64,000 nt of DNA, from IMG/VR virus record IMGVR_UViG_3300028888_000052. One strand, written 5' to 3'. Within the stretch, counting starts at the first letter, position 1; every line of letters begins with the position of its first letter. The position numbers and the translations under genes are program-made. Of this stretch, positions 1,181-53,878 are shown one piece after another. Source of the DNA: a virus. Taxonomy: Duplodnaviria > Caudoviricetes. Below the pieces are notes generated by a model that was not told the DNA's origin, ran no database searches, and saw only the letters and a list, made by a program, of their open reading frames with translations.

Positions 1181-1459
1181 TTACATTTTCCAACCCATAG
1201 TAGTTCCAATAGCACCCATTACTAAACGAGAAGTAAGTAATGAACCAAATGAACCTTTTGGATCAACTCCTAAAGCTTTACAAATAGCACCACCAAGTTT
1301 TGGACCTAAAGCAGCACCTAATACAGCACCACCAATAGCACCAAATATACCTTCATTAATTGGTGTTCCATTTTCTTTAGCTTCATTAAGTTTTTGTATT
1401 ATATCATCATATGTCAAATCCTCATTTACTGGATTTGCAATTTCTTCCATTGACTTCAT
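1181..1459 (-). CDS. Small protein with acidic propeptide and glycine-zipper hydrophobic C-terminal part; putative internal head protein
   Basis: MKSMEEI...PINE/GIFGAIGGAVLGAALGPKLGGAI. Confidence 0.55.
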   Translation of the reverse strand: MKSMEEIANPVNEDLTYDDIIQKLNEAKENGTPINEGIFGAIGGAVLGAALGPKLGGAICKALGVDPKGSFGSLLTSRLVMGAIGTTMGWKM

Positions 1460-1466
1460 ATTAAAA

Positions 1467-1871
1467 CTATTTATTTAATTTATTCCAAATTTTATCAAAT
1501 GTCTCTTTGTCAGGTATAGGTATGAAACATCTATCAATAAATACTCCAAGTATATATTGCTCATTTTTAGTTTTCTTACCACTCATATAATCTGCTAAGA
1601 ACCCATCATATAAACCAACATTTTTAGAATTATCTGTACTGTTGTTTGGATCCCCAACTTCGATATTCAAAGAGTCTAAAGTAGCCCAAGCCATACTTGA
1701 AAAATTAATATCTGTTAAAAACATTGGCTCTTGTGAATGTTTACCAGAATTTGCATCCCATTTTTCAATACGTTTAGCAATCATTGATAACATTGAGTTT
1801 TCACCATCTTTGAACATTGATATAATTGATTGTTCTTTATCTTCGGTAATAATATCTTCTATAGTTCTCAT
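1467..1871 (-). CDS. Hypothetical protein with capsid-targeting-like N-terminus
   Basis: MRTIEDIITED; ends in TAG. Confidence 0.55.
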   Translation of the reverse strand: MRTIEDIITEDKEQSIISMFKDGENSMLSMIAKRIEKWDANSGKHSQEPMFLTDINFSSMAWATLDSLNIEVGDPNNSTDNSKNVGLYDGFLADYMSGKKTKNEQYILGVFIDRCFIPIPDKETFDKIWNKLNK

Positions 1872-1890
1872 TTTAAATATTGTTTATATA

Positions 1891-2898
1891 TTAAAAATAA
1901 TTCTTTTTTATAGTTTCTTTTATATGTGAGATATTAGATACTTTATCATATAAAATTTCTGGGTGAATGGTATTTGAATATTTATGTATAATTTTTCTAA
2001 TTATTTTATAATCTCCAAAAGTTATGTTATTAGAATTCATCAAATCCCATTTTCTAAAATATATTTTCAAAATATTCATTATAATTAAAGCTCCTAATGC
2101 ATTAGTATGATGTTTTTGAATATCTTCTATATCTCTTGAAAATGCATTTAATTCATAAAATTTATGTATCTTAAAAAAATTTATAACCGGTTGGTCGATA
2201 TTAAAATATTTTATATTATTCTCTAAGCATCCTTGTTTATATAAATCTTCTAATTCTAAACATCTTGGTTTTATTTTTATTACACCATCATCATAACGTG
2301 TAAATGGATATTGTCTACATAAATATTTTTTTCCTTGTGGCCAATATCTACATAATATACCTAAATCAATTGAAATATCATCTTGTTTTTGATCTCTTAG
2401 GGTATTAGCCCCATCCATTATAAAAATTATATCATTATCTGTTGGGTATACTGCTTCAAATTTATGTAATATATGTGTATGCCAATTTAAAGATTTTCCT
2501 GATTGTGAAAAATTAATAAACTCAATATTATCTTTTAAAAAGAATGGAATATATTGTGCATAAGACATATATGTTATTATATCTTTATGATAATAAGAAT
2601 GACTATCACCAATTAAGATAAATTTTCTAGTATTAGTTATTTTTTCTTTATTTATTATTTCGAAATTATATTGTTTTTTTCCAAATACAAAAAATTCAAT
2701 ATCTTTTTCCTTTAACCAACCAGGTTGTGTATGTCTATAAATCCAATTATGATAATTAAATATAATTGTATTTCTATCTTTATTTATATGGCCATAATAT
2801 AAAACACAATTTTTCATACCAAATATTATTATATCATCTGGTTCTTTTATATCTAATAATTTAATTGTAAATTTATATAAACCTACTTCTTCAGTCAT
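1891..2898 (-). CDS. SGNH/GDSL hydrolase-family protein
   Basis: Block I ILIGDSHS, block II NFSQSG, block III DGANT, C-terminal KHHTNALG. Confidence 0.65.
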   Translation of the reverse strand: MTEEVGLYKFTIKLLDIKEPDDIIIFGMKNCVLYYGHINKDRNTIIFNYHNWIYRHTQPGWLKEKDIEFFVFGKKQYNFEIINKEKITNTRKFILIGDSHSYYHKDIITYMSYAQYIPFFLKDNIEFINFSQSGKSLNWHTHILHKFEAVYPTDNDIIFIMDGANTLRDQKQDDISIDLGILCRYWPQGKKYLCRQYPFTRYDDGVIKIKPRCLELEDLYKQGCLENNIKYFNIDQPVINFFKIHKFYELNAFSRDIEDIQKHHTNALGALIIMNILKIYFRKWDLMNSNNITFGDYKIIRKIIHKYSNTIHPEILYDKVSNISHIKETIKKNYF

Positions 2899-2948
2899 GA
2901 AATGTTTTAAATATATATCTTTCTATGTCTTCTATATTTAAAAATAAA

Positions 2949-2969
2949 AAGGAGTAATAAATACTCCTT
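2949..2969. terminator. Intrinsic terminator hairpin
   Basis: AAGGAGTA-ataaa-TACTCCTT just downstream of the 2975-4582 stop; U-tract on - strand. Confidence 0.65.
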
Positions 2970-2974
2970 ATATT

Positions 2975-4582
2975 TTAATATTTTTTTCCTCCACGTTGTG
3001 CTTGTAATTTCATTTGTTCTTTAATCATTGACTTACAATCATCATCAGAAAAATCTGGCATCTTTCCACAAGATTCAAAAATTTTAGCACATATTGTGAA
3101 AGTACGAATAGAAACTTCCATCTTAGCATTTGATTCAAGCATTTCTATAAGATAATCATAAGCTTTTATCTTAGATTTAGAGCTTAAATGTTCGGGATCA
3201 AGAGCAGGCATAAGTTTTTTGATAATCTTAAGAATATCTTCTGTTGTGAAGTGAATATCTTGCACAAATGAACGTCCACGAAGAGCAGTATCTAATTGAC
3301 CAGCATTATAGTTTGTGATAACTATTATACCACCTCTATAATAGAATCTCTTAGGAAGTTCTTCACCATCATCATTCATAATCTTACCAGAAACACCATA
3401 AGATACAAGTCTTCCTTCATCATCGGATGTACTATCAAGTGCACCTTTCAAAATATTTATACAATCTTCAGGTGCTTTAGGTCCTACCAATCCATCGGCA
3501 TCATCAATTACAACTATTTGACCTTTATCTTGATATTCATATAAAGTACAATAAAGAACACGAGGAGTACATTTACCTTTAATTGTAAACATACCATGAC
3601 CTTCATGATAATCATGTGCTTTAAGTTGTTGCTTAATACGATATGTTTTACCTACACCAGGAGCACCACAAAGAATTACAGATGGGTTAGTTCCATCAAT
3701 AACCATATTTACATAAGCGGCCATCTTTTTGAAAACTACATCTGGGTCTTCTCTTTCTTGTTCAAATTCCTTTTCAACTTTTTGTTCATCATCATCAGGA
3801 ATATAAGATACTGATAAGTTACGTTTCAAAGCAACTTGAAGTTCTTCCATAGTAGAAGCTCCACCTTTAATAGCTTTTACTATTTCATCATATTCATCTT
3901 TTAAATTATTAAAACGTTGTTTAGCTTCTGGAGATTCTTTTCTATGTAAATAAGCTTCATCTCGTTCAGCACGTTTTCTATTCTTGTAATCTTTTACTTC
4001 ATCATCTGCTTCTTGAATATTCAAAAGATATGCTTCATCAATTATTTCATCTGACATATTTTCTAATATCCTATAACTAAGTGCTCCTACATAATATAAA
4101 GATTCTTTAACACCTTGTCCTTTGAATACAGATCTACCTAAATCTATAGCTTCTTTTTCTGATAAATCATATTTTTGGTTATTTGCTACAGTCCATATAA
4201 TAGGTAAGAAATAAACAATTGATTTACCTAAAGTATAAATTGTTAATGATGATTTTGATTTACCATTAAATAAAAGCTCAAGGTCTTTGAAAAAGTCTAT
4301 TGAATAAACTTCTGTTGTAGATGAAGATTTAATCCAGTTAATTTGGAATAAAGATGTTTGCCCATATTTCTTTCCATGAAGAACCATGAATTGTTTAGAA
4401 TAAACTTCTTTATCACCAATTTTATTAAGAACTATACCTTCTAATGGGATTAAACCATCTATCTTGTCAGTAAGTACTTTAATAATCAAATCTAAAGCTT
4501 TATCAATATTCTTTTCAGAAAAACCTTCATTAATATTAAATTGTTGACGTTTATCTATAAATTCTAAAAATGTTTTTCTCAT
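2975..4582 (-). CDS. AAA+ ATPase with long N-terminal domain and capsid-targeting-like leader
   Basis: Walker A GAPGVGKT, Walker B VVIDDAD, sensor ITN, Arg finger ALRGRS; leader MRKTFLEFIDKRQQFNINEG. Confidence 0.8.
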   Translation of the reverse strand: MRKTFLEFIDKRQQFNINEGFSEKNIDKALDLIIKVLTDKIDGLIPLEGIVLNKIGDKEVYSKQFMVLHGKKYGQTSLFQINWIKSSSTTEVYSIDFFKDLELLFNGKSKSSLTIYTLGKSIVYFLPIIWTVANNQKYDLSEKEAIDLGRSVFKGQGVKESLYYVGALSYRILENMSDEIIDEAYLLNIQEADDEVKDYKNRKRAERDEAYLHRKESPEAKQRFNNLKDEYDEIVKAIKGGASTMEELQVALKRNLSVSYIPDDDEQKVEKEFEQEREDPDVVFKKMAAYVNMVIDGTNPSVILCGAPGVGKTYRIKQQLKAHDYHEGHGMFTIKGKCTPRVLYCTLYEYQDKGQIVVIDDADGLVGPKAPEDCINILKGALDSTSDDEGRLVSYGVSGKIMNDDGEELPKRFYYRGGIIVITNYNAGQLDTALRGRSFVQDIHFTTEDILKIIKKLMPALDPEHLSSKSKIKAYDYLIEMLESNAKMEVSIRTFTICAKIFESCGKMPDFSDDDCKSMIKEQMKLQAQRGGKKY

Positions 4583-4585
4583 TTT

Positions 4586-6265
4586 TTATATAAAATATAT
4601 TTCGACTGGTTGTAATTTTATAAAATCATTCTTATTATCTAATTGTTTCTTATTTGGATAATATTTTATAGATGATATTATAGGCATTTCTAATTTACTA
4701 TTCAAAGATATGTTTCCAAATTTATCTAAACCTGGTTGCATATCAGATTCATACATAACTTTTCTCTTTACATAATCAAATGTTCCATTTATCTCTTTGA
4801 AAACATAATCATAATAATAAGTATTATAATAGCAACTTTCTGCTAAATCAGAATAAAATGTTATTTCTAATGATTTAATAGATTTAATATTATCTAAAAG
4901 ATATTTGGTTAAATCAGATTTAGGTATAAATTGAGTGTTAGTTAATTTATTCATGAAATACAATGCTATATACCTTTTAATAGTGGTTTTTATAGCATCT
5001 CTTTCATAGACATTATCTAATTTCACATAACACATAATAGCAAATTTTCTAATAATTGGATCTTCAAACCTAAGAGTAATTCCAGCAAATGATTTTTGTG
5101 AATTATCTAATGTATTTTGAATCATTTCTTTTTGTGATTCATCTAATAATATCTTATTGTCGGTCAACTCAAAATACTTTTCTGGATTACGTAATTCTTT
5201 AGAAAGATTTTTAGTACATGAGGCAATTACATACATAGAGTTTGTTTCACTCCAACAATTTACAGTACCTATAAAAGAAAATCTCTTGAAGAATAATTCA
5301 AAATTATCTTTAGATGCTAATACTAAAGATCTTGAATTTTTACCTACCATATTACGTATAAATTCAATACTATCTGAATTAGTTCCACCAGATACACATT
5401 TTTGTAATTGCAATATCAAATATCTATTCAAATCTATATTGTTACCAAATACATCTTTACCAACAGCGGCAAATTTGAAATTAGTTACTTCATCTGGTAA
5501 AATATTTCCAGTAACACCAGCATGTTTTAAATATTCAACTCTTATATTTTGACCTTCAATAAGCTTAGTGCCATATATTCCATTACCAAAAATTATATTA
5601 AAAGTATTTTCATAACCAACTTCACAAATATATTCATTTCCATTTTCTGACATATCATAAAGATTAGCTACTTGTTTATATTCAACACCATCTACTAATA
5701 CTTTAAGAGATTCTTTATCAAATAAATCTATAGAATATACACTAAATGTCTCTAATGGTTTTCCTTCTGATACAAAATTATGAACCGAAATGTTTCCTTG
5801 GATGATTTTAAATTCATGGTTAATCAATGGCTTAGAAACATCAACAACATAATAATCAGTTGGCAATTCAATCAAATATGTTACACCAGTATTTTTATTT
5901 ATAATTGGAGTATAATTTTGAATATATATTTTAGTTGTATTAGAATCTAATCCATTATTTAATATCAATTTACAAAGAATTGTTCCTCTAGCTGCTGAAC
6001 CATAAAAAGCATCATAACCGGATATCTTAGCTAATGAATAAACAGATTTTTTACGTGTAGCAGTAAATATATTTTGCTCATTCAAAGCATCTTCAATATA
6101 AAACATCATATTTTGCATTACACCCTTAATACCATCAAATATTACTCCAAATATTTGAGTATGAGTATATTGCAAACCAAGATTATTAAATGTCTTTGAT
6201 AGATATGATCTTATTGTTTGGTCATAATTATCAAAACTAGTTTGTATAATATTAAATAACTTCAT
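4586..6265 (-). CDS. Baseplate wedge protein, T4 gp6-like
   Basis: ATRKKSVYSLAKISGY, IIFGNGIYG...IRVEYL...G.TGN and SGGTNSDSIEFIR are typical gp6/baseplate J motifs; adjacent to a gp25-like gene. Confidence 0.75.
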   Translation of the reverse strand: MKLFNIIQTSFDNYDQTIRSYLSKTFNNLGLQYTHTQIFGVIFDGIKGVMQNMMFYIEDALNEQNIFTATRKKSVYSLAKISGYDAFYGSAARGTILCKLILNNGLDSNTTKIYIQNYTPIINKNTGVTYLIELPTDYYVVDVSKPLINHEFKIIQGNISVHNFVSEGKPLETFSVYSIDLFDKESLKVLVDGVEYKQVANLYDMSENGNEYICEVGYENTFNIIFGNGIYGTKLIEGQNIRVEYLKHAGVTGNILPDEVTNFKFAAVGKDVFGNNIDLNRYLILQLQKCVSGGTNSDSIEFIRNMVGKNSRSLVLASKDNFELFFKRFSFIGTVNCWSETNSMYVIASCTKNLSKELRNPEKYFELTDNKILLDESQKEMIQNTLDNSQKSFAGITLRFEDPIIRKFAIMCYVKLDNVYERDAIKTTIKRYIALYFMNKLTNTQFIPKSDLTKYLLDNIKSIKSLEITFYSDLAESCYYNTYYYDYVFKEINGTFDYVKRKVMYESDMQPGLDKFGNISLNSKLEMPIISSIKYYPNKKQLDNKNDFIKLQPVEIYFI

Positions 6266-6612: not shown

Positions 6613-8955
6613 TTAATAAATTATCCATTTACCAGATGAGATATATTCATCATCTTGGTTAGTGATTGTATATACACCAGAACCTTTTTGGAATAAGTTG
6701 CTATTCAATGAGAAAATCACATAAATATCATTTCTACCAAATTCAACAAACTCAATTCCTTCAATAATAATCTTAAATGTATCAACTTTATTCATATAAT
6801 TACCCAAGTTAATACCAATATTTTGAGTTAAGTTAGCTCTCATCTTAATATTTTGCAATTCTTGAGTACGATAGAAAATAGGTTTATAAATAATGTTATT
6901 TACACCTACTGAAGATACATGTGAATTATTATCTTCTTCTTTTTTAATAATACAATTTATGTTATTAATGAAATTAAATGGTTGTATCATTGTATTATCT
7001 AATTCTTCATTAAATACCTTTTTAGCTGATTCTATAGCCTTGTTAAAATATTCATTGTTTTGCTCTCTTGAACTATTTTTGATAAATTCAACAGCAGTAT
7101 TGAAAATATCACTTATATGTTCTTTAACATCATTCTTGTCACCATTTAACTTGATTTCTTTCATATCATCATTTATATTATTTAATACATTAAAGCTAAA
7201 AATATTATCATCGTTTATAATATACTTGAAATATTCTTTAGTTATAACAACTGGGTTACTATAAATTACCCTATTTAATATTCTATCTATGAAAATTGTA
7301 CGGGCAATCAATAAATCTGTCAATTGATACCAATGGTCATAGATATTGTTTATATTAAATGAGAAGTCATCTAATTGACTAAAATCAACAGAAACTGTTT
7401 GGTTGTATACTAAATTTTTGAATTGTCCATCAGAAGCTATTTGAATTCTAAAACCTAAGAAATCCATTCCAGTCTCAAAATCTTCTTCGACTTCCCAATC
7501 CCTTAATTCATCATATATTCCATCATAATTCAATTGAATCATACGACGTAATCTTTCTTCAGTTGAAATATCTTCTAATCCTTCCCAAATCAATTCTCCT
7601 TCTTCATCAACATATTGTCTTTTTACAACATAATTCTCAGTACCATCATGCTTGCCTTGGTTATCAAACAATACTAAGAATTTATTCAAGAAATATTCTT
7701 CTCTTTCAGGAAAATCTCTTCTAAGTTTTTCTACCCAATAATAATCATAATAATATTGGTCAATATTGTTATAATATTTATATGCTTCTTTAAATGCCTC
7801 AGAAGTTGTTTTATGATTTTTTATATATTGGTCTCTTTTAGGATATTTGAATTTAGAAAGAATAGATATTTTATGATTCTCATCAAATCCTAATTTAGCT
7901 TTTAATTGGAATTTACAATCTATATTATAGACATCAGTATATAATGAGAGATCTTTTGATAATTGATATGTATTGGTATTCGTATCAATTTTATCATAAG
8001 GGAAAATTGTTATATTAAAAGGATTAGTAATATAATTATTCTCTATAGATATTTGTTGATTCAAATATAATTTTACATTATGTGTCTCATGAGTTACTGG
8101 GTCTTCATCTTCTATAATTCTATATGGTTGTAACAAAAGATTCAATGGGACTAATTGGTTTTCAAACTCAAAATAAGTATCTTTTCTTGAACTAATTTTA
8201 AATTTCATATATCTTTCTGAATTTTCTGATAAGATGTTAGTTATGAAATTCTCATTCTTAGCAGATACTATTGTATTTAGATTTTCATTAAAATAAACAT
8301 TGAATATTTTTTTACCATTATCAACTTTAATTAACTTAAACAAATCATCAATATTAGGTATATGCAATTCGATATATTCTGAATATGTTTGATTTTGATA
8401 AGTAATTTCAGTCTCTGAATTTGTAGTATAATTATTTAATGATTGACAAAAATAATACCAATGTATATTATTGATGTAGTTATCTATGCAAATTATACCT
8501 TTTAACTTTGTCTTGTTATTTGGGTGATAAATTCTTAATAAGTTACATTTAATACGTTTTGGTTTGTTTTCATAATCAACCAATGGATAAATATCATTTC
8601 CATATAAATAGTTTCCATCTGCATCTTTCTTGTAAAATGAATTCTTATTGAAATTCATATTAAAATCCATTGGAGTTACTGAATATCCTGTTATACTTGT
8701 ATTTGGAATAGGAAATACTAATGATTTAACTTTTGGGAACATTTCATCATCACTATCATCTAATTCTTTACTTAAAGATTCCCAAACACTCTTTTGAAAA
8801 ATGTAAATATGAGTATCATTAATAATGCTATTCATAATTGAAAAATTACGAATCATTACATACTCATGTGTTATATTATCAATGTTATCTGTATCTTGGC
8901 TTAATAAATCTATCAAATATTTATAATTGCCGATATTGACAAATTTTCTAATCAT
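6613..8955 (-). CDS. Large hypothetical protein, probably structural
   Basis: 780-aa ORF directly upstream of and co-oriented with the baseplate genes. Confidence 0.5.
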   Translation of the reverse strand: MIRKFVNIGNYKYLIDLLSQDTDNIDNITHEYVMIRNFSIMNSIINDTHIYIFQKSVWESLSKELDDSDDEMFPKVKSLVFPIPNTSITGYSVTPMDFNMNFNKNSFYKKDADGNYLYGNDIYPLVDYENKPKRIKCNLLRIYHPNNKTKLKGIICIDNYINNIHWYYFCQSLNNYTTNSETEITYQNQTYSEYIELHIPNIDDLFKLIKVDNGKKIFNVYFNENLNTIVSAKNENFITNILSENSERYMKFKISSRKDTYFEFENQLVPLNLLLQPYRIIEDEDPVTHETHNVKLYLNQQISIENNYITNPFNITIFPYDKIDTNTNTYQLSKDLSLYTDVYNIDCKFQLKAKLGFDENHKISILSKFKYPKRDQYIKNHKTTSEAFKEAYKYYNNIDQYYYDYYWVEKLRRDFPEREEYFLNKFLVLFDNQGKHDGTENYVVKRQYVDEEGELIWEGLEDISTEERLRRMIQLNYDGIYDELRDWEVEEDFETGMDFLGFRIQIASDGQFKNLVYNQTVSVDFSQLDDFSFNINNIYDHWYQLTDLLIARTIFIDRILNRVIYSNPVVITKEYFKYIINDDNIFSFNVLNNINDDMKEIKLNGDKNDVKEHISDIFNTAVEFIKNSSREQNNEYFNKAIESAKKVFNEELDNTMIQPFNFINNINCIIKKEEDNNSHVSSVGVNNIIYKPIFYRTQELQNIKMRANLTQNIGINLGNYMNKVDTFKIIIEGIEFVEFGRNDIYVIFSLNSNLFQKGSGVYTITNQDDEYISSGKWIIY

Positions 8956-9012
8956 TTAACATTATACTTATTTATATATAAAAATAATATTCATAAATTA
9001 TTTGCACAAAAA

Positions 9013-11689: not shown

Positions 11690-11708
11690 ATATTAGTTTA
11701 TATTTTAT

Positions 11709-14802: not shown

Positions 14803-14934
14803 ATAATATGTATCACGAATATTTAGATCATCACAATGAAAATTATACTGGTATCGAAGGATGCTACAATGGTATGGATGCTAATGATTATGCATTTGAG
14901 AAGGCTTTAGAACAACTTGAAAATTGTTAATATT

Positions 14935-15096
14935 ATGGAAAGATCTGAACTTTGGGAAGTAATTGAAAATTTGAAAGATAGTTTAGGTGCAGAACAGCTT
15001 TTAGATGCTTTATGTATGTCACTTGATTCTGACACTCTTGAGGATCACCTTCGCTATATTGATAGAAATTATGAAACTAATTGTTTTGAAGATTAA
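14935..15096 (+). CDS. 53-aa protein, paralog of 18792-18977 lacking the capsid-targeting leader
   Basis: Manually translated MERSELWEVIENLKDSLGAEQLLDALCMSLDSDTLEDHLRYIDRNYETNCFED; below the ORF-track cutoff. Confidence 0.7.
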   Translation: MERSELWEVIENLKDSLGAEQLLDALCMSLDSDTLEDHLRYIDRNYETNCFED

Positions 15097-18592: not shown

Positions 18593-18790
18593 TTATACAA
18601 TTTTATATCTTTTGAATTTCTTTCTTCTTTTATACATTTTTCCTGTCTTTATATCAATACAACATAATCCCATGTCACCACTGCCACCTTGTGTATTAGG
18701 TTCAGTTGGCATAGTAGGATTACCCATACCCATAGTATTAGTAGGTGTAGAAAATAATTCTTCTTGAAGATATTGTCTAATGTCTTTCAT
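18593..18790 (-). CDS. Small putative internal head protein
   Basis: MKDIRQYLQEE leader; basic C-terminus. Confidence 0.55.
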   Translation of the reverse strand: MKDIRQYLQEELFSTPTNTMGMGNPTMPTEPNTQGGSGDMGLCCIDIKTGKMYKRRKKFKRYKIV

Positions 18791-18791
18791 A

Positions 18792-18977
18792 TTACCAATG
18801 GATGTCGTAATTCCTGCAAATAAATTTTAATACTTTTTCCAAATCATCATCTGATAAACCTTGGCATATTTCATCAAGTAATTTATCAGCTCCTAATTCT
18901 TCTTTAAGTTCATCAATTTTATCCCAAAGCTTCTTATCTGATGAACCTTCATTAATTAAATCTTCTATTCTTTTCAT
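18792..18977 (-). CDS. Small putative internal head protein, paralog of 14935-15096
   Basis: MKRIEDLINEG leader + LWDKIDELKEELGADKLLDEICQGLSDDDLEKVLKFICRNY. Confidence 0.65.
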   Translation of the reverse strand: MKRIEDLINEGSSDKKLWDKIDELKEELGADKLLDEICQGLSDDDLEKVLKFICRNYDIHW

Positions 18978-18989: not shown

Positions 18990-19700
18990 TTATTTTCCTT
19001 CAAAATACCAACGTGCTTCTGCTTGGCGTCTTTTAATCAAACCTGGGTATTTTCTACCTTGAACATCTGATAAATGAGACCAAGTATTTCTAATTGCAGG
19101 ATTGTTTGGATTAGCAATAATCATTTTACAAATTTGTTTATTTAAGAATCCCATTCCAAAATTATAGCATCCTGAAGCTATTGCATCTTTTTGATTTTGA
19201 TTTAATTTAACTTTATTTGCATTAGCCCACCTATCAATACGATTTGCCGTATATTTAGCATGTTCTAAGAAAAGACCTTCTAATTCTTTTTGTGTCCATG
19301 TTCTTTTTATTGTGTCCATTAACTTACCATTTGGGTGATACAATAATCCATATCCATAAGTTAAATGACCTTTAGCATCATGTAAATCATAACCATTAAG
19401 ATCTTTTGAAGTCATAGTGTAGCCGAATTTTTTACCTGTCTCATATTGGCAAATAAAATTAATCATACCATCACTAAGTCCAGAATTATTAGTAACTTTA
19501 TTAGATGTTGTTTGTTGTGGTAATATAATAGCCCATGATTTAGGACCAACTACACCATCTGGGGTTAATCCTTTAGATTTTTGCCATTCTTTAACTTTTT
19601 TATCTGTATTAGGACCAAAGTTTCCATCTGGTGTCAAACCAAGATACTTTTGAAGTACCTTGACATCTTCTCCTTTAGAGCCTAATTTAATTGTAGTCAT
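18990..19700 (-). CDS. Endolysin: peptidoglycan-binding domain + GH24 lysozyme
   Basis: GSKGEDVKVLQ...DGNFGPNT..VKEWQ...GLTPDGVVGPKSW; YE, LTYGYG, LNQNQKDAIAS..YNFG, GLIKRRQAEARWY. Confidence 0.9.
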   Translation of the reverse strand: MTTIKLGSKGEDVKVLQKYLGLTPDGNFGPNTDKKVKEWQKSKGLTPDGVVGPKSWAIILPQQTTSNKVTNNSGLSDGMINFICQYETGKKFGYTMTSKDLNGYDLHDAKGHLTYGYGLLYHPNGKLMDTIKRTWTQKELEGLFLEHAKYTANRIDRWANANKVKLNQNQKDAIASGCYNFGMGFLNKQICKMIIANPNNPAIRNTWSHLSDVQGRKYPGLIKRRQAEARWYFEGK

Positions 19701-19709: not shown

Positions 19710-19895
19710 TTATTTTTTTAAGTCTAAGTAAACTCTTGATAATATATTTGCCAAATCATCCCAACTTACTGGATCACGCATAGAATGATAACTGGCATTG
19801 AATAAATTAATTACTGAACTGGATGCACCATTATCTTGTAATTTATCAAGGTACATATTTTCATTTACTGAAATTAAATCTTCTATTTTTTTCAT
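19710..19895 (-). CDS. Small putative internal head protein
   Basis: MKKIEDLISVNEN leader. Confidence 0.55.
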   Translation of the reverse strand: MKKIEDLISVNENMYLDKLQDNGASSSVINLFNASYHSMRDPVSWDDLANILSRVYLDLKK

Positions 19896-19915: not shown

Positions 19916-20347
19916 TTATGATAATGCCATATAGAATGTATCTTTACGAACTTCACCACCGACAATATAATATCTATCTAATGGGTATTTGTCTTGCAAT
20001 TTTTTATATGCTTCAAATTCCATATCATCATCAACAAATACTATAGAAGCTAATGTACTTCCCCATTTTGCAGATTCATGATTTTTATCAAATACTACAC
20101 GAACATTATAGGCATTTCTACTTTCTCCAGATATATTTTTAACACCTTTTAATAATCCTTTTGGATCGGCTTTATCTGGACAAGTACCCATGTTTTTCTT
20201 TACTTGGGATTCTTGATATTTACGATATTCTGAAGCTGTTTTTGAATCGGTTGTAATCCATCCACCATCCCAATTCTTTTCAGGCCATGGACCCATATAC
20301 ATTCTAACTTCATTTGATTCTGTTATATAACTATTTAGAGTTTTCAT
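19916..20347 (-). CDS. Putative internal head protein
   Basis: MKTLNSYITES leader. Confidence 0.6.
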   Translation of the reverse strand: MKTLNSYITESNEVRMYMGPWPEKNWDGGWITTDSKTASEYRKYQESQVKKNMGTCPDKADPKGLLKGVKNISGESRNAYNVRVVFDKNHESAKWGSTLASIVFVDDDMEFEAYKKLQDKYPLDRYYIVGGEVRKDTFYMALS

Positions 20348-20580
20348 TATTTATTTGGAAATAATTTTGATTGAACTTCTTTAACATTTGTTTTAAATTT
20401 ACTACTGTGGTCATATAAGACTCCAAGTATAGACATCTTTGCTCCATTTGCAAGTTTTGGTAATAAATCATCAAGTTTTTCTCCTTCTATAAGTTTAAGA
20501 ATTAAAACTTGTGGGGTCATTTTATCAAAATCTGGTGCTGCATAGTGGTCTTCATTTATTCTTTGTATTAAATCTTTCAT
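20347..20580 (-). CDS. Small putative internal head protein
   Basis: MKDLIQRINED leader. Confidence 0.55.
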   Translation of the reverse strand: MKDLIQRINEDHYAAPDFDKMTPQVLILKLIEGEKLDDLLPKLANGAKMSILGVLYDHSSKFKTNVKEVQSKLFPNK

Positions 20581-22226
20581 TATTTCTCCTTTTCTTTATT
20601 TTTCTTTTCTTCAGCTTCTTTAGCTTTCTTTTCTGCTTCTTCTTTGAAACTATAAGCTAAATCATCTTCAAGAATATGTTTCTTTGCAGGATTAATTTGA
20701 TAAGCCATACGAGACATTACATCACGATTTATAAGAACTTTTTGTTTCTTATTACGATTATCAACTAATGCAAATTCTACATCAAGAAGTTTACGTGAAC
20801 CAACTTGTATACATGGTATAATAACTGTAGTACGTTCTTCTGTTTGTTGACCAACAATAGCATGTGATTCACCTTCTTTCTTGAATTGATATTTCTTACC
20901 ATCAATAGTGGCAATAACAAGATTACCTTTATAATCTACTGAATCACATCCAATAGTTGAAGCTTTAGCACCATTACCTGTATCAAATTTAGCTTCAAAT
21001 TCAAATTCATCATCATTATCCATAATGAATTTTACATTTTCAAGATATCCTATAGCCTTAGGAGCAAGTACTAATTCATTAACATCATTGATTTCATCAA
21101 GAAGGATTTCCATAAAGTTATCATCAATAACTTCAGAAATACCATCTGTACCTGGAGAAGCATTATATTCAAGAACAACATTATCTCCAACTTCAGGATT
21201 AGAACCTTTTACAAGTGGCATAATGTCAACAGCACACCAAGGCATACCAGAAATTTTAGCAACTTTTAATGCTATTTCTTCTTGTTCTGGAGTAAGAGTT
21301 ACTTTTTCAGCAGTAGCACCAAGTGAAACATTAGAACGGAAGTCACCACCAATCTTCTTACGTTTCATTTGTGCAAGTATTTTTTGGTGAGTTCTCATTG
21401 TTAATACATGAACACGGATATCACCACCATCAGCTTCTTCTTTCTTTTGTACTAATAATTCACGTTCTTCATCAACTGCAAATACCATTTGAAGCATTGA
21501 AAGAATTGTTTTACCAGTTTGCATTGTAACACCAGTTCCACCATGACCATCAAGTATCTTTACAACATATTCTTTCTTTTTATCTTCATCTTCATTCTTA
21601 CCAACATCTGGATAAATTTCTTTAAGTTTCTTCTTAAGAGATTCTTCACCTTTGTTTATATCATTTTTTGATATAAGAGTAAATTTAGGTTGAGGAATTT
21701 CATAACGTTCCATTAAAACAGATGATTGATATTTATTAGAAGCTTTCTTAGCTGCTTGAATAGGGTTAAGTACAAAGAATCCCCAATCTTGAAGTTCTTT
21801 AATAAGTTCCATACATTCTTCAGAATCTTGTGCACCAAGACGAGTTATAACAATTGTATCAACATTAGATTGTTCATCAATTTTATATTTATTCTCATTA
21901 TCGTGCCATTCGATTACATCATCTGTAGCTTTATAATCAACTTCTTCTGCAACAAATGGGAATATATCAACACCTTTACCTTTAACAGCTTGTTCAAGAT
22001 TCTTTAATGTTTTATTAGTTTTTGAATCTCTATCATTTGTAAAGATAATGATATTTTTGAAGAAATATCCTTTCTTTTTATCTTCTTTTTCAGCTTCAGT
22101 TATTTGTGTTTCTTGTACTGGAGTTTCTTCTTTTTTTGATTCTTTGATACGACCAGCATATCTAAATTTCAAATCATCAACTGACTTGATATTTCTATAA
22201 TCAATAATATCGTTTAAATTTTTCAT
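20580..22226 (-). CDS. RimK-family ATP-grasp ligase fused to a retropepsin-like (RimB/PF05618-type) protease
   Basis: ATP-grasp motifs NKY, VVKILDGHGGTGV, DIRVHV, DFRSNVSLGA, AVDIM, VLEYNASPG; protease motifs IGYLENV, AKFDTGNG, VLINRDVM. Confidence 0.85.
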   Translation of the reverse strand: MKNLNDIIDYRNIKSVDDLKFRYAGRIKESKKEETPVQETQITEAEKEDKKKGYFFKNIIIFTNDRDSKTNKTLKNLEQAVKGKGVDIFPFVAEEVDYKATDDVIEWHDNENKYKIDEQSNVDTIVITRLGAQDSEECMELIKELQDWGFFVLNPIQAAKKASNKYQSSVLMERYEIPQPKFTLISKNDINKGEESLKKKLKEIYPDVGKNEDEDKKKEYVVKILDGHGGTGVTMQTGKTILSMLQMVFAVDEERELLVQKKEEADGGDIRVHVLTMRTHQKILAQMKRKKIGGDFRSNVSLGATAEKVTLTPEQEEIALKVAKISGMPWCAVDIMPLVKGSNPEVGDNVVLEYNASPGTDGISEVIDDNFMEILLDEINDVNELVLAPKAIGYLENVKFIMDNDDEFEFEAKFDTGNGAKASTIGCDSVDYKGNLVIATIDGKKYQFKKEGESHAIVGQQTEERTTVIIPCIQVGSRKLLDVEFALVDNRNKKQKVLINRDVMSRMAYQINPAKKHILEDDLAYSFKEEAEKKAKEAEEKKNKEKEK

Positions 22227-23313: not shown

Positions 23314-23330
23314 ATATATATCTTATTGTT

Positions 23331-28928: not shown

Positions 28929-28948
28929 ATATATGTTAAAATTTGTGA

Positions 28949-30040: not shown

Positions 30041-30051
30041 ACATTACCTTT
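30026..30051. terminator. Bidirectional terminator overlapping both convergent stop codons
   Basis: Palindrome AAAGGTAATGTTT/AAACATTACCTTT followed by a T-run. Confidence 0.7.
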
Positions 30052-30373
30052 TTTTTATGTATTTATTTTTTGAAGATTTATTATTTGTGACTTGTACTAT
30101 TATATCTTTTAATTTCTGTATATAATCTTTATTATCTTCTGGGTATATATCATTATCCACGAAATTCACAAATTCTTGTAATTGATTTTTTAATTCTAAA
30201 TTATCATTTAATAGTAGTTCTAATTCTTTTACATTAAATTTTGTTTTATTATATTCCGCAACTAATGTCAAAAATTCTGATAATTGATTTGGATTGAATT
30301 CAAACCATTTATCTAACATCCAAAATAAATTGTTATCTAATTCTTCTAATATAAATTCATTTAATGTTTTCAT
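30044..30373 (-). CDS. Putative internal head protein
   Basis: MKTLNEFILEE leader. Confidence 0.6.
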   Translation of the reverse strand: MKTLNEFILEELDNNLFWMLDKWFEFNPNQLSEFLTLVAEYNKTKFNVKELELLLNDNLELKNQLQEFVNFVDNDIYPEDNKDYIQKLKDIIVQVTNNKSSKNKYIKKR

Positions 30374-31032
30374 TTTTTATAAACTGCTATTTCACCATCT
30401 TTATTTTTCTTTATATCAAAATACTTTTCATATAATTTTGGTTTAGTATTATATTCTTTAATATTTAATGTCAAACCTTTATAACCTGAAAGTGATTTAA
30501 TTTCTTTAATAACAATGTTGATTAATCCTTCACTAATACCTGAATTAAAATGATTTTTATCTATTTGCATACTTAATATATGGTCATAATCTTTATACTC
30601 TAAAAATTCTGAAGGTCTTTCATATTTATCATGTGTTATAAAGAATAAACAACCATATACATTATCTTTATCTTCAGCAACTGCTATTCTTATTTTATTA
30701 TCATATCCTTTTTCAACAATATCTTTACCTTTATTAAGATTGTTGTTTTTGTAAATCTTCTCTTTTATTTGGTCATATTTATAAATATTATATTCGATTT
30801 TATTTTCTTCTGTATCTTGTTTATCTGAAGATTTTTCTGAAGATGTTTTCGAAGGTTCCAAAGTATGATGCTCTGGTTTTTCTTTTTTCTTTTTCTTGAA
30901 TTTTCCTTTAATCCAACTCCATGCTTTCTTAACACCATCTTTAAATTTTCCTTCATCTATTTGTTCTTCTAACAAGAATTTCAAGTCTTCTTCAATTTGG
31001 TATTTTATTAAATATTCTTTTAAGCTTTCCAT
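30370..31032 (-). CDS. GNAT-fold acetyltransferase-like protein with capsid-targeting-like leader
   Basis: IAVAEDKDNVYGCL...ILSMQIDKNHFNSGISEGLI...LTLNI...KLYEKY. Confidence 0.6.
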   Translation of the reverse strand: MESLKEYLIKYQIEEDLKFLLEEQIDEGKFKDGVKKAWSWIKGKFKKKKKEKPEHHTLEPSKTSSEKSSDKQDTEENKIEYNIYKYDQIKEKIYKNNNLNKGKDIVEKGYDNKIRIAVAEDKDNVYGCLFFITHDKYERPSEFLEYKDYDHILSMQIDKNHFNSGISEGLINIVIKEIKSLSGYKGLTLNIKEYNTKPKLYEKYFDIKKNKDGEIAVYKK

Positions 31033-31709
31033 TATAGTTTATATGTTAATATTTCTTTATTATCTTTCATTGAGGTAAATCCTAATTTTGTTAAGTTTGC
31101 TTTCATTTTAGGATGAAGTGGTTTAGCCGTTATACCATTATAATTTCCATCTTTATTAATAACATGTAAAGCCCAATCATTTAACATAGCTTTTAATACT
31201 GGTGTGCTTTCTTTTACACATAAAGAAGTTTCTATACCAACTAAATGAATAAACCCATCTACATAGTTTATATTTTTATCATACATTATTATACCAACAA
31301 AATATGTAGGATCTATAGAATCTTTTGAAGCTTTTGTTTCTTCTTCATTAGCTTCATTTTTAGTTGTGACTGGTCTGTACCAATATGGTAAACATTCTGG
31401 TTTTAATTCTTTTTCCTCAGTACCATTAGTATCTATAAGATATTTCTTAGGCATTTGTAACATTTGGTTAATTACTGTAAAACCTATGACTTTATCTGAT
31501 ATGATTTTCTTTACAATTTGATCTTTTGAAAAATCTTCAAACTTAAATGTTTGATTATTTTTAGGTTTAGCTAAATTGTCCACATCAACATCTATCGGTT
31601 GAAGTTTGTTATCTTTTATAAGTTGTTGCATTGTATCATAAACTTGCTTCAACCATTTTTCAACTTTAACACCTAAAGACTCATTTATAAACTCTTGTAA
31701 ACGTTTCAC
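31032..31709 (-). CDS. Divergent GNAT-like protein with capsid-targeting-like leader (GTG start)
   Basis: MKRLQEFINES; YFVGIIMY...IHLVGIET...ITAKP...LTKLGF. Confidence 0.45.
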   Translation of the reverse strand: MKRLQEFINESLGVKVEKWLKQVYDTMQQLIKDNKLQPIDVDVDNLAKPKNNQTFKFEDFSKDQIVKKIISDKVIGFTVINQMLQMPKKYLIDTNGTEEKELKPECLPYWYRPVTTKNEANEEETKASKDSIDPTYFVGIIMYDKNINYVDGFIHLVGIETSLCVKESTPVLKAMLNDWALHVINKDGNYNGITAKPLHPKMKANLTKLGFTSMKDNKEILTYKL

Positions 31710-31740
31710 AATTTTAACTTATTTATTATTTAAAAATAAA

Positions 31741-39856: not shown

Positions 39857-39864
39857 AACTCCTT
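39839..39864. terminator. Bidirectional terminator
   Basis: AAGGAGTTCT-ttagtt-AGAACTCCTT spanning the convergent stops. Confidence 0.7.
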
Positions 39865-40504
39865 ATTTATTTTCTAATAATTTTGAATCTGTTTTATCAT
39901 CAGCATCATATTTACGAGCTAATTCTTTAAGTTTTTGACGTACTTGTTCAGGAACATCTACTTTACCTTTTGGGTTACCCATCATAAGTTTTGTATGTGG
40001 GTGTCCTCCTATCTTTCTTGTATAATAATATCCATCAGGTTTAATTTCTAAAAATTCTTTATCTTTCATAATTTCCTGGGCAATTTCTGCTTTAACTGGC
40101 ATAGCACCTTGATTGAACATCGTAGAAACTGCTTTTCCAGAATATTCGCCCCATGCTTGTCTATCCGGTAATAAATTATCTTCAACCATTATTTTCTTAA
40201 GTGATTGTACTCCTAATTCAGTTCCATCTGTTCCAGCATAACAAGCTTTTCTTCCACCTCTTTTATTATTATAAACAATACAAGCAACTATCTTTCCTTC
40301 TTTTCTAACTAATTTCCAAAGAGTTGTTTCATTCATTAATTGTTCCACAGAATCCATACCTGCCATACCGCCACAATATTCATATGATTTTGTTAATATT
40401 TTCCAAACATCATTTGCATATTGTTTCATTTGGTCTTGATTATGACAATTAACAAATCTTTCACATATTAATTGTTCATTTATAAACTTTGATATATTCT
40501 TCAT
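39863..40504 (-). CDS. Putative internal head protein, possibly GNAT-like
   Basis: MKNISKFINEQ leader; VWKILTKSY..CGG, WKLVRKEGKIVACIVY, AWGEYSG. Confidence 0.55.
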   Translation of the reverse strand: MKNISKFINEQLICERFVNCHNQDQMKQYANDVWKILTKSYEYCGGMAGMDSVEQLMNETTLWKLVRKEGKIVACIVYNNKRGGRKACYAGTDGTELGVQSLKKIMVEDNLLPDRQAWGEYSGKAVSTMFNQGAMPVKAEIAQEIMKDKEFLEIKPDGYYYTRKIGGHPHTKLMMGNPKGKVDVPEQVRQKLKELARKYDADDKTDSKLLENK

Positions 40505-40554
40505 CTACAATTTAAGTTTAATTATATAAAAATAATATTTTATTTTATTTGTTT

Positions 40555-42623: not shown

Positions 42624-43001
42624 ATGGAATTTATAAAGAAAAATTGGAAGATGATTCTCATTGCATTACTTGTTGTATTTAGTTTGAATAAATGCACAGT
42701 AGCATGCAACAGAGATACAAAGATTAATAAGCAACAAACTGAACTTGTACAAAAAGATTCTATTATCAAAGTACAAGCTGATTCGTTGAATATTTTAAAG
42801 ATTCGTTGGGATGATGCACAAACTAATAAAAATGATTTGGTAGGTGTAGCATTAAATACTAAACAAGAACTTGTAAATCAAGTTAATCAATTGACTAATG
42901 ATAACAATATCCTTTTACAAAAAGTTAATCAATTGACTTCTGAAGTAAATAATCTTAAAAAAGAAAATAAACGATTAAAGGAACAATTAAATAATAAGTA
43001 A
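42624..43001 (+). CDS. Membrane-anchored coiled-coil protein (possible i-spanin)
   Basis: N-terminal TM segment followed by a long heptad region. Confidence 0.4.
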
Positions 43002-43219
43002 TGGCAAAACAAGGTTCAATAGAGCAATTTGGTATTATAACAGAAAATCTTTCTAATTCAATGTTTAGGGTTGAATTAGATAATGGTATTGAAATATTGT
43101 GTCATATATCAGGGAAGATTCGTATTAATAATATTAGATTGATGACAGGTGATAAAGTAAAAGTTGAGATGAGTCCTTATGATTTGAGTAAAGGAAGAAT
43201 TGTTACAAGATTGAAATGA
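43001..43219 (+). CDS. infA: Translation initiation factor IF-1
   Basis: [65 protein letters not shown], 72 aa. Confidence 0.95.
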
Positions 43220-47532: not shown

Positions 47533-47533
47533 A

Positions 47534-48746: not shown

Positions 48747-48766
48747 AAATTATTAAATCAGTTTTT

Positions 48767-49090: not shown

Positions 49091-49154
49091 ATTAAATTAA
49101 TTCATATTTATATATAAAAATAAAATTATTTTTAATCAAAATACAACAATATTT

Positions 49155-49661: not shown

Positions 49662-49676
49662 GTATTATGGGATCTG

Positions 49677-50009: not shown

Positions 50010-50145
50010 AGAAAAAATTTATTTTTAAATAGAAGATTTGAAATAACAACGTTTGACAATTCTATTTTAAATTAAATTAACAGAAAGATTAAAATTGTTT
50101 AAAAACAATTTAATCACATTTGACAAAAATATTTTTACATTTATT

Positions 50146-51258: not shown

Positions 51259-51282
51259 TTGTAGATAATTAATTTTTAATAT

Positions 51283-51310
51283 AAAAGACAGTTCATTTGA
51301 ACTGTCTTTT
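51283..51310 (+). terminator. Intrinsic terminator
   Basis: AAAAGACAGTTCA-tt-TGAACTGTCTTTT + T-run. Confidence 0.8.
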
Positions 51311-51349
51311 TTTATTTATCTATATTTATATAAAATTAACTTTAATAAT

Positions 51350-51694
51350 ATGGAAAGCAAAGTTAGTGAATATTTATGTCACAAAAATTTAAATGAACAA
51401 ATAAATTTAGATAATTTTCTAATGGAAAATAAAGAAATGCGTACAGGTATGATTATGGATGCGGTTAATCAAACCGACACTCAAAAGCAAGCTAAAGAAA
51501 ATTTAGATGCCGCTGTTGGAGTAAAACAAGAGCAATTGTTAGAAGCTATGGCAAGATATAAAGCAGCTCATACACCTAAAATTAAGGAATATAAAATAGG
51601 TCGTAATGATCCTTGCCCTTGTGGCAGTGGAAAGAAGTATAAGAATTGCTGCTTATCATCAGGTAAATATGAAAATTATAAGTTAGTTAAGTAA
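51350..51694 (+). CDS. SEC-C metal-binding motif protein
   Basis: [20 protein letters not shown]. Confidence 0.85.
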
Positions 51695-51695
51695 T

Positions 51696-52675
51696 ATGAA
51701 ATACACATTTGACGTTACAACTCGTGAAAACGAGAATATAATTAAATTAGATGTTAGTTATGGTTCTTTATCTAATAATGTTACTCGTACGGTTACATTT
51801 GTAGGTGGAGAAGATCATGATGATCCAGCTTTAGATGAACTTTTAACTAATTGCATAGATAATATGCGTTTAACTGTTAAAGAACGTGAAGAAGCAATCT
51901 ATAATGCCGGAGTATTTAAATGGTATATTCAACAATATGGAATAAATACTCAAAAAAAGGAAACAGAAAATGTCATGATTGTTGAAAATAATGACTCAAG
52001 TGTAATACCACAAGAATTAGTATAATGTTAAGTTTATTTGAGCAATTAAAAGAATATCCTGAAGAATTCATCAAAGCATTGGATATAGTCAAATACAAGA
52101 ATTTCGAAATATTTTTTACTGATGCATTAAAACGATTTAATGTCGTTGAAGATTATAATAAAATGTCACCTGAAGAAAGAAATGGTGCTTATGAATTATT
52201 TAAAAGAGTATATGTCTATGGATTTTATAATGGTGTAAGTTTTACACTTAATCCAGATAAATATTTTGATGAAACAGTAAAAGATTATCCAAATGACACC
52301 GATCCTAGAAAAGACTTGTAAATGCATTAAAGAATGTATATTTGATGGTTATGAATTTCATAAAGGAAGAGAATATCAAGTAGATATTTATCCATTATTT
52401 AATAAAATATATAATAATGGCGGGTGGGATGACTACATATTCTTTGAAGATAATAATGAAAATAAATTTAACGAATATTTCAAGTTAATAGAATGATTAA
52501 AGATATTGAAGTATTAAATGAGATAAAGGCAATTAGGAAGAAAACTGAATTATTAGCTAATCCTTTATATAATGATTTTTGTGGTTCTCATTTTTGGGGA
52601 GATATCGATAAGAGATTAGAACAAATTGAAAACGATATTGAAAAAGATTTAAAAGCATTTAATTTTTTAAAATAA
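51696..52675 (+). other. Hypothetical genes (51696-52025, 52025-52321, 52293-52496, 52493-52675)
   Basis: Overlapping, co-oriented ORFs. Confidence 0.5.
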
Positions 52676-52700
52676 AAATGGAGGTCTTAGACCTCCATTT
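52676..52700. terminator. Bidirectional terminator
   Basis: AAATGGAGGTCT-t-AGACCTCCATTT. Confidence 0.8.
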
Positions 52701-52702
52701 AT

Positions 52703-53878
52703 TTATTTCATTTTTTTCTTCATATCTTCAATCATTTTTTCAACTTCTTTACAATATTCATCTACATCATTAAATTTTTCTTTAGCAGATGATTTGTCAA
52801 AGTTCCATTTATCAAAGTCCTTTTCATCAAAATCTTCACCTTTATCTTTTGCTCTTTGTTTTGCTCTTTCAGTTGCTTTATCACCTTTTGCTTTATATTT
52901 GAATGCATCATAGAATGATTCATAAGCATGTGAACAATAAGATAAAAGTCGACCAACATCAAAGTATTCATCCATATTTTCAGGATTAGACATAATCTTT
53001 TCCATTGTGGCAATAGCTTCAGCATGAACTTTATTGATTCTTTCCATCAATTGTTTTGGATCTCCTTCAAGTTTCTTTGCTTTCATTTCTTTTACCATTG
53101 CTTGATAACGGGCTTTTTGTTCTTTAAGCATCTTCTTAAGAGATTCTTCATCATAATTAATTATACCTTTTTGTGAAGCAATACGTGTGTCATGAAGTTT
53201 GGTGTATTCTGCTTTCATATTATCAGTAATTTGAAGTACATAAACATCTAAACCACTAATTACCGTCATTGCTTCCTCAAACTTAAGAGATCTTTCACCA
53301 TATTTATATTTTGTTGCTGTTTTTTCTGTAACGGCATCTCTATTACCATATTTTGATTTGAATCCAAAAACTCTTACATCACCAGGAGTATTTGAATATC
53401 CTTTAATGAACATTACTACATTTTGAGTACCTGGTTCGCAACAAATAAAATTAGCTTGGTTTTTCTTTGAATAGCAATCCTTAAGTATTTTACTAAAAGT
53501 TTTGTCATCGGCACTAACTGATTTATATAGTTCAAAATCATCATCTTTAATTTCATTCCATTTAAGACCTTGTAAACCAGTTTTTTGATCACCATAACGT
53601 TGATGGAGTGTTATTGGGCCAAATATTGATGCAAATGATTTTGCCGTTTTACTTGGAGTACCAGAATAACCGTTATCTTTATAATGTTGTTCTGTTTTTC
53701 TATCATGTTCAGCATTATCCTTTTCTGCATCTTGAATAGCTTTAGCAAGAGCTTTTAAAATAGAAGCTTTAAAACTTTCATTAATTTGAAGAACTTCTTC
53801 TCCTTCAAGTATAGCATATTCTTCTAAGACTTGTTTCATATACACAGCCTTATTCAATGATTCATATAAACTTTGCAT
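52703..53878 (-). CDS. Putative internal head protein
   Basis: MQSLYESLNK...ILEG..VLQINES leader; isolated - strand gene preceded by the late motif. Confidence 0.55.
   Translation of the reverse strand: MQSLYESLNKAVYMKQVLEEYAILEGEEVLQINESFKASILKALAKAIQDAEKDNAEHDRKTEQHYKDNGYSGTPSKTAKSFASIFGPITLHQRYGDQKTGLQGLKWNEIKDDDFELYKSVSADDKTFSKILKDCYSKKNQANFICCEPGTQNVVMFIKGYSNTPGDVRVFGFKSKYGNRDAVTEKTATKYKYGERSLKFEEAMTVISGLDVYVLQITDNMKAEYTKLHDTRIASQKGIINYDEESLKKMLKEQKARYQAMVKEMKAKKLEGDPKQLMERINKVHAEAIATMEKIMSNPENMDEYFDVGRLLSYCSHAYESFYDAFKYKAKGDKATERAKQRAKDKGEDFDEKDFDKWNFDKSSAKEKFNDVDEYCKEVEKMIEDMKKKMK

Follow-up and report, generated by a model that had tools for sequence, protein, structure and literature searches.

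What makes so many proteins of one phage start alike? The question is raised by a 64,000-nt stretch of Caudoviricetes DNA (IMG/VR record IMGVR_UViG_3300028888_000052; hereafter, the window, which is the whole stretch analysed), with 114 open reading frames (ORFs), 28 on the minus and 86 on the plus strand, and a G+C content of 27%. An earlier note on this DNA had listed 14 N-termini and proposed that they share a leader of the type that targets internal proteins of phage T4 to the capsid and is cut by the prohead protease. All 14 were found at minus-strand gene starts, as claimed, and every computational test available to us was in favour of a T4-type capsid-targeting and prohead-protease signal. 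Judged from sequence comparison, the leader is likely to be such a targeting and cleavage tag, which is employed here on a scale about ten times that of T4.

The comparisons were based on relatives of the AAA protein encoded at 2975-4582; these have 57-62% identity to it and are encoded on IMG/VR contigs of 86-435 kb. Among these contigs, the related phage genome G001 (376,291 bp, 98% complete) is syntenic with the window over roughly its positions 33-86 kb, and 54 of the 114 window ORFs have a match there, at about 60% protein identity. A second relative, G002, is a half-complete genome.

The canonical leader pattern, ^M[KR]x[LI]xx[FYLIR][IL]xE (in general form M-K-x-[I/L]-x-x-[Y/F]-I-x-E), was detected at eight of the 14 starts, all on the minus strand. 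To avoid circularity, the position-specific scoring matrix (PSSM) was built from 32 G001 leaders only, and with it the eight window starts scored 7.3-23.4. These genes are listed below (the arrow marks the putative cut, and the higher coordinate is the gene start).

1467..1871, minus strand: canonical leader MRTIEDIITE↓D, protein of 134 residues, PSSM 7.3; orthologues start MKSIYDIINES and MKSLKTMITES; no Pfam or PHROG match
18593..18790, minus strand: canonical leader MKDIRQYLQE↓E, 65 residues, PSSM 7.8; the G001 orthologue starts MKDLKQFIKEE
18792..18977, minus strand: canonical leader MKRIEDLINE↓G, 61 residues, PSSM 13.1; tagged copy of a paralogue pair
19916..20347, minus strand: canonical leader MKTLNSYITE↓S, 143 residues, PSSM 20.7
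20347..20580, minus strand: canonical leader MKDLIQRINE↓D, 77 residues, PSSM 11.0; the G001 orthologue starts MKHLNELIKED
30044..30373, minus strand: canonical leader MKTLNEFILE↓E, 109 residues, PSSM 20.2; the G001 orthologue starts MRSLKDYIFEE
31032..31709, minus strand: canonical leader MKRLQEFINE↓S, 225 residues, GTG start, PSSM 23.4; GNAT fold
39863..40504, minus strand: canonical leader MKNISKFINE↓QLICE↓R, 213 residues, PSSM 17.8; GNAT fold (family alignment A1)

The proposal of a shared leader stood in full for these eight. In the other six it is longer or shifted, and two of the six (starts at 19895 and 31032) are assigned tentatively.

1181..1459, minus strand: variant-leader protein, 92 residues, with an acidic pro-region of ~36 residues and two conserved [I/V]-x-E sites (VNE↓D, PINE↓G)
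2975..4582, minus strand: AAA-type ATPase, 535 residues (Pfam AAA, phrog_1250), extended leader MRKTFLEFID...INE↓G
19710..19895, minus strand: tentative variant leader (MKKIEDLISVNE↓N), 61 residues; 7 of the first 8 residues are the same as in the protein starting at 18977
20580..22226, minus strand: RimK-like ATP-grasp enzyme, 548 residues (Pfam RimK 9.6e-21), starting MKNLNDII
30370..31032, minus strand: tentative variant leader (MESLKEYLIKYQIEE...IDE↓G), 220 residues, first-half score 5.3
52703..53878, minus strand: extended-leader protein, 391 residues, INE↓S at residues 32-34 before a conserved body

A conserved [I/V]-x-E-[S/A/G] site was kept in the orthologues of three of these genes (starts at 4582, 53878 and 1459). 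In the AAA-type ATPase the leader is shifted by one residue, with Asp replacing Glu10 and such a site downstream, and the succession of TFLxF[IL] and [IV]xE[SAG] was kept in six orthologues. The G001 orthologue of 52703-53878 starts MKQLFEYIVD directly behind the promoter-like motif described below and keeps INE↓SFK, and in 1181-1459, with a low canonical PSSM score, both cleavage-type sites were kept in the orthologues in G001 and L001-L006. The RimK-like enzyme, without Glu10, has a first-half score of 12.8 and an I-K-E↓S site at residues 27-29, with IIKE↓Q at the equivalent place in its G001 orthologue (87% identity). For 19710-19895, the first-half score was only 0.9 and no orthologue was found in the relatives' loci compared.

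In line with the strand preference that the earlier note had described, the canonical leader was present in 8 of the 28 minus-strand ORFs and in none of the 86 on the plus strand (Fisher p = 5.6e-6). This bias is local to the window, since the leader genes of G001 occupy both strands, beside late modules. When the PSSM was applied at every ATG, GTG and TTG in six frames, only two further matches were obtained, one to a membrane protein without Glu10 and the other to a 23-codon out-of-frame ORF. A check that used no motif gave the same picture: 13 pairs of window decapeptides at residues 2-11 had at least 5 identities, versus 1 and 0 at internal offsets, and G001 had 389 such N-terminal pairs versus 27 and 15.

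At such a G+C content, Lys, Ile, Asn and Glu codons are common, and the leaders might be alike, without any function, simply because the DNA is AT-rich or because the 5' ends of genes were duplicated recently. None of the 18,455 internal 12-mers of the window proteins reached a PSSM score of 8, however, and the leader DNA pattern, with 27 occurrences in G001 and 18 in G002, had no match when reversed. Lak-A1, a gut jumbo phage with the same capsid type, likewise had no match in 542 kb. Together with the conservation of the leader within a protein family, in which it was kept down to 41% identity while neighbouring positions drifted, these controls refute the by-product explanation, which we regard as having almost no chance of being right.

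The family concerned is that of 31032-31709, whose members were not chosen by the pattern. The leader was present in 88 of its 97 representatives, and those without it look like truncated gene calls. Residues conforming to the leader were found at positions 4, 7, 8 and 10 in 91, 90, 93 and 91 of the 97, respectively; positions 2, 4, 7, 8, 10 and 12 were fixed and positions 3, 5, 6, 9 and 11 drifted. The 32 G001 leaders, picked by a regular expression that already restricts positions 4, 7, 8 and 10, had I/L at position 4 in 32, Y/F in 26 and I/L in 6 at position 7, I/L at position 8 in 32 and E at position 10 in 32. Overall, the constrained positions of the leader are 2, 4, 7, 8 and 10. Within the leaders ATA is about as frequent as ATT, synonymous codons differ, and I/L and Y/F interchange, so the constraint acts on the peptide and not on the RNA.

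These codon data bear on a second explanation, in which the leader is an N-terminal signal that has nothing to do with the capsid, such as a tag for degradation or regulation that a host or phage protease reads, a signal for localisation, or a feature by which translation of one gene class is initiated. The motif occupies the first codons of the genes, a region in which translational signals act too, and the genes are without a Shine-Dalgarno sequence, but the varying synonymous codons and the tolerated conservative swaps speak against, and the former rule out, a signal at the RNA level. As a secretion signal the leader is too weakly hydrophobic.

To what extent the leader is a separable module was revealed by the proteins behind it. 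The earlier note had called them unrelated. With the first 14 residues removed, all 14 were indeed BLAST singletons, but the products of 31032-31709 and 39863-40504 both have the GNAT fold, and to that extent the description does not hold. The 32 G001 leader proteins, treated in the same way, showed no BLAST similarity to one another within the genome. Where Pfam domains were found in leader proteins they start at residues 17-22, and in AlphaFold2 (AF2) models of two families the leader is a low-confidence N-terminal helix apart from a confident fold. The model of 31032-31709 has a predicted local distance difference test (pLDDT) score of 82.5, with residues 1-10 below 50, and in that of 39863-40504 the leader helix comprises residues 4-11 and is followed by a floppy stretch at 12-14. 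The tagged protein of 18792-18977 has an untagged paralogue at 14917-15096, with 46% identity over 46 residues (E = 1e-13), and the alignment of the two begins just past the leader. The leader is an add-on module, as this pair of tagged and untagged paralogues shows. The protein encoded twice is small and acidic.

14917..15096, plus strand: untagged paralogue of 18792-18977, a natural control for leader modularity
4586..6265, minus strand: baseplate wedge subunit without leader (phrog_219 at 2e-28; N-terminus MKLFNIIQTSF)
18990..19700, minus strand: endolysin without leader, with leader genes on both sides (Pfam Phage_lysozyme and PG_binding_1)

As had been observed earlier, the leader is absent from the baseplate wedge subunit and the endolysin, and also from the two ORFs that had been read as fibres (31793-33082 and 33113-33982), which have no family match; a tblastn search with 31793-33082 against GenBank phages gave no match. 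The leader is not general to late proteins, since the baseplate wedge subunit is without it, and the most abundant late proteins (capsid, sheath, tube and baseplate) do not carry it.

The T4 capsid tag is a textbook route by which phage proteins are delivered with the DNA, and is borne by a handful of T4 proteins; the T4 internal proteins' capsid targeting sequence was reportedly described by Mullaney and Black in 1996. In T4, the IPII/IPIII leader MKTYQEFIAE↓A and the longer IPI leader are all removed by the prohead protease gp21 (PMC9026906, PMC3012670). According to mutagenesis, targeting depends on residues 4 and 7, whereas residues 8 and 10 serve processing; Asp at position 10 blocked cutting but not targeting (PMC9026906). 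The most conserved positions of the window leaders (4, 7, 8 and 10) are those set by this mutagenesis. When 611 ORFs of T4 (bases 1-126,000 of AF158101) were ranked by the G001-trained matrix, IPIII came first (9.4) and IPII second (8.9). IPI has a two-part form, MKTFKEF...ITE↓A, parallel to the extended leaders in the window. The third rank was taken by gp61.1 (AF158101 18966-19130, minus strand), a hypothetical protein of 54 residues starting MKTFKEFIKED, which may be an unrecognised capsid-tagged protein.

The likeness includes the length of ten residues, the M-K start, the hydrophobic positions 4 and 7, with Ile at 8, Glu at 10 and a small residue next, the two-part extended form, the protease family (as seen in G001), and the use of the tag by otherwise unrelated proteins. 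The T4 internal proteins are a diverse set with only the tag in common, which may be a general means of protein loading in T4-like phages (PMC3012670, PMC9026906). The T4 genes ipII and ipIII lie beside the lysozyme gene e (AF158101 65416-66997), as leader genes flank the endolysin gene in the window, which may be a conserved neighbourhood or a coincidence. The two systems differ at position 4, which is Tyr in T4 and Ile or Leu in the clade of the window, and above all in scale: T4 has three internal proteins and Alt, whereas in this clade 8-14 genes are tagged in the 64 kb of the window and at least 36 in a genome of 376 kb, frequently as tandem arrays. Several recognisable enzymes are among its predicted cargo, which in general is not basic.

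A protease that could cut such leaders was found in G001, where a frame of 542 residues (G001 212537-214165; L018:12537-14165) shares 28% identity with T4 gp21 (BLASTP E = 1e-9), with the His and Ser motifs GELxHP and SSRG aligned. It matched phrog_207 at 3e-45 and, in a six-frame search, PF03420 (S77) with 45.9 bits. An S80 assignment was considered as well; hmmscan gave only a sub-threshold S80 match, and the gp21 type was settled by the BLASTP match to T4 gp21 and by phrog_207. A PDB sequence search with the protease gave no relevant match. Downstream of it lies a gp23-type capsid protein (PF07068 at 4e-28) in which IHE↓S (residues 44-47) precedes the conserved body and is a putative propeptide site, much as LTE↓A is in T4 gp23.

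The G001 protease is fused to a C-terminal region of ~360 residues in which W-[VI]-[VT]-E-E-F-A-P-E-V-Q-[NG] is repeated in tandem six to eight times and I/L-x-E sites, 20 in number, are 2.7 times as frequent as in the genome on average. In PTm1 and pT24, the gene adjoining the capsid gene is annotated as prohead core scaffold, and that of PTm1 is a scaffold-protease fusion. The repeat region in G001 might act as a scaffold or offer the leaders a surface for docking.

With the protease at hand, the explanation by a signal unrelated to the capsid can be weighed in full. The link between leader and capsid is drawn from sequence comparison, but the clade has a gp21-type protease with a matching I/L-x-E logic, the nearest T4 match is an experimentally defined capsid tag, and capsid, sheath, tube and baseplate proteins, as noted above, are without the leader. 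We consider such a signal improbable, and clearly more so than a role of the tagged proteins in head assembly, which is discussed below.

Leader genes and head genes also share a putative regulatory signal. The promoter-like motif TTATTTTTAWATAWAWA has 10 matches in the window versus 0.67 expected, eight of them on the minus strand, upstream of virion operons and leader genes; in the seven minus-strand sites given below, the distance to the virion or leader gene is 10-60 nt.

8971..8987, minus strand: promoter-like motif upstream of the baseplate operon 6613-8955, the genes of which are without leader
31723..31739, minus strand: promoter-like motif TTATTTTTAWATAWAWA upstream of the leader gene starting at 31709
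40519..40535, minus strand: promoter-like motif TTATTTTTAWATAWAWA upstream of the leader gene starting at 40504
49107-49123, 2931-2947, 11702-11718 and 1137-1153, minus strand: further sites of TTATTTTTAWATAWAWA

In G001, this motif is found before several leader arrays and before the genes for the protease, the capsid and the tail tube. It is common to protease, capsid, tube, baseplate and leader genes. Probably it serves this phage group as late promoter, and its distribution fits late co-expression of the leader genes with the head genes.

To see how widely the leader is used, we profiled the relatives. In G001, 36 of 604 ORFs carry it, encoding proteins of 57-295 residues, and these genes are clustered, with 19 adjacent pairs versus 2.1 expected at random. 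The strict pattern had 0-2 matches each in LR756500, pT24, PAU, PTm1 and Lak-A1, which have the same capsid type. These counts rule out the leader as a general feature of the wider capsid-type group, and the leader is specific to the clade, since these distant relatives are without its exact form.

The cargo behind the leader includes recognisable enzymes. In Foldseek searches with the AF2 models, the best matches of 31032-31709 were TacT/KacT/AtaT-type acetyltransferases, and 39863-40504 had general GNAT matches; the fits of both were moderate, with TM-scores of 0.4-0.57. The product of 30370-31032 had a weak GNAT match below the cut-off (Pfam Acetyltransf_7, E = 1.3e-3). The window cargo includes at least two GNAT-fold proteins, and perhaps a third. 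The AAA ATPase, the RimK-like ATP-grasp enzyme and several small proteins of no known family are also tagged in the window, as are an AAA_33/zeta-like kinase (P-loop), a ferritin-like protein and an HAD hydrolase in G001. The RimK-like enzyme has an N-terminal extension of ~160 residues, and its gene sits amid leader genes. In the product of 1181-1459, the P-I-x-E-G site is followed by a glycine-zipper hydrophobic body (GAIGGAVLGAALGPKLGGAICKALG), and cleavage may free a membrane-active peptide from it.

Such cargo was used to judge whether the leader is instead the prohead-protease propeptide of core, scaffold or maturation helpers, which would afterwards be degraded or kept in the head. Many of the tagged proteins are very small (57-143 residues) and of no known family, as helpers might be, but the GNAT folds, the kinase and the HAD hydrolase are soluble enzymes without a plausible structural role. 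The large AAA and ATP-grasp enzymes stand amid baseplate genes and are conserved rather than variable, as would suit a part in head building; about half of the window leader genes, on the other hand, are without a G001 orthologue, so leader genes turn over fast, as host-interaction genes do. The core proteins gp67, gp68 and gp22 of T4 are cut by gp21 and largely expelled (PMC9026906), yet the leader matches the IPII/IPIII tag and not the termini of these three. On balance, we regard the helper explanation as unlikely. A basic, DNA-coating role of the kind known from the T4 internal proteins was not supported, as the isoelectric points of leader proteins are distributed like those of the other proteins.

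Cleaved head proteins are also known from the phiKZ-like giant phages (phiKZ, 201phi2-1, SPN3US), in which many different proteins are loaded into the head and cut after Glu by a distant gp21 homologue (gp175/gp245-type), and the propeptides are thought to be targeting signals (PMC5694885, PMC9026906). The motif there is S/A/G-x-E, whereas the clade of the window has a T4-like tag of ten residues with I-x-E; most propeptides of the phiKZ-like phages have 80-160 residues, they are not a single short tag in common, and only 8-19 proteins are processed. An assignment to the phiKZ type was rejected, because 29 of the 32 G001 leaders have Ile, and the other 3 Leu, at the second position before Glu, and the ten-residue leader is shared.

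If the leader is a capsid-targeting and cleavage tag, as we favour, it may work as follows. The leader genes would be transcribed late, together with the head genes. The ten-residue leader would form a short amphipathic helix, hydrophobic at positions 4, 7 and 8, and dock the protein on the scaffold or protease core during prohead assembly. The gp21-type serine protease would then cut past Glu10 (I-x-E, then S, A, G or E) and free the mature protein within the shell. DNA would be packaged around the cargo, which would exit with it at the next infection. In the longer leaders, the docking part would be set apart from a downstream I-x-E site, as in T4 IPI. The cargo would be a changeable set of small proteins of no known family and of enzymes. 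Docking, cleavage, packaging, ejection and effector roles are all steps that we infer. That most of the cargo is ejected and acts on the host has, in our view, close to an even chance, and caution on ejection is due because some of the cargo is large or oligomeric and the set is not basic in character.

Several points weigh against this reading or its parts. Six of the 14 leaders depart from the consensus, and for the protease and capsid genes the evidence comes from the syntenic relative only, at the protein identity given above. Since the leader is specific to the clade, what it does cannot be read off from relatives that have been studied. In contrast to the T4 internal proteins, the cargo shows no enrichment of basic proteins, and the ferritin-like protein of G001 and the enzymes of 535 and 548 residues in the window would be awkward to eject through the portal. 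Contigs from three sheep-gut RNA libraries show neither transcription nor its timing; they are uninformative on expression because exact contigs cover leader and plus-strand genes equally and could contain DNA.

A wider proposal, which we put forward tentatively and hold slightly more doubtful than not, is that the clade uses the ten-residue tag as a plug-in system by which dozens of proteins per genome (~6% of genes) are loaded into the head and delivered before phage gene expression. Among them would be GNAT enzymes nearest to tRNA-acetylating toxins, kinases and hydrolases, and some activities would be supplied twice, the tagged late copy being injected and the untagged early copy made anew. 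If this is true, the tag opens, from sequence alone, a large catalogue of the host-takeover and anti-defence proteins with which uncultured phages strike first. Where a phage cannot be cultured, it gives a list of candidate injected proteins, which are the likeliest to meet host defences first. The tag is short, modular and close to one already used for loading foreign proteins into T4 heads. The mechanism itself would not be new; what is new is the scale and the types of enzymes carried. Among the papers searched, none reports that huge phages of the gut or rumen have expanded sets of genes with a capsid tag.

As for the origin of the window, near-verbatim copies of its sequence were found in sheep-gut metagenomes from several studies, and the source is an uncultured giant phage of the sheep gut. 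Scans for exact patterns of the window in two contig collections (viral_contigs and metagenome_contigs) gave no match. The phage resembles the Jug (jumbo gut) phages and the huge phages of the ruminant gut related to them (PMC12880540), which are T4-like, have genomes of ~360-400 kb with 27-30% G+C and live in animal guts. The capsid protein type of the Jug phages is that seen in G001, and their listed core genes resemble the NrdG-like and IF-1-like genes of the window, which were named from reading the sequences. The text describing the Jug phages does not contain the term 'N-terminal' and is silent on leaders or packaged cargo (PMC12880540).

In general, the minus-strand blocks of the window hold virion genes, such as those for the baseplate wedge subunit and the endolysin, and the plus-strand blocks hold genes for nucleotide metabolism and other non-structural functions, including NrdD-like and NrdG-like genes. 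The latter two we take to be 56880-59444 (plus strand) and 59895-60395 (plus strand), respectively, from reading their sequences and from their G001 matches; 43001-43219 (plus strand) presumably encodes an IF-1-like protein, so named from its sequence, and is 92% identical to its G001 counterpart. Eight co-oriented ORFs form a plus-strand operon at 22282-30040 that breaks into the minus-strand late genes. All gene starts in the window are without a Shine-Dalgarno sequence and have only A/T-rich sequence upstream, which is typical of Bacteroidota and their phages.

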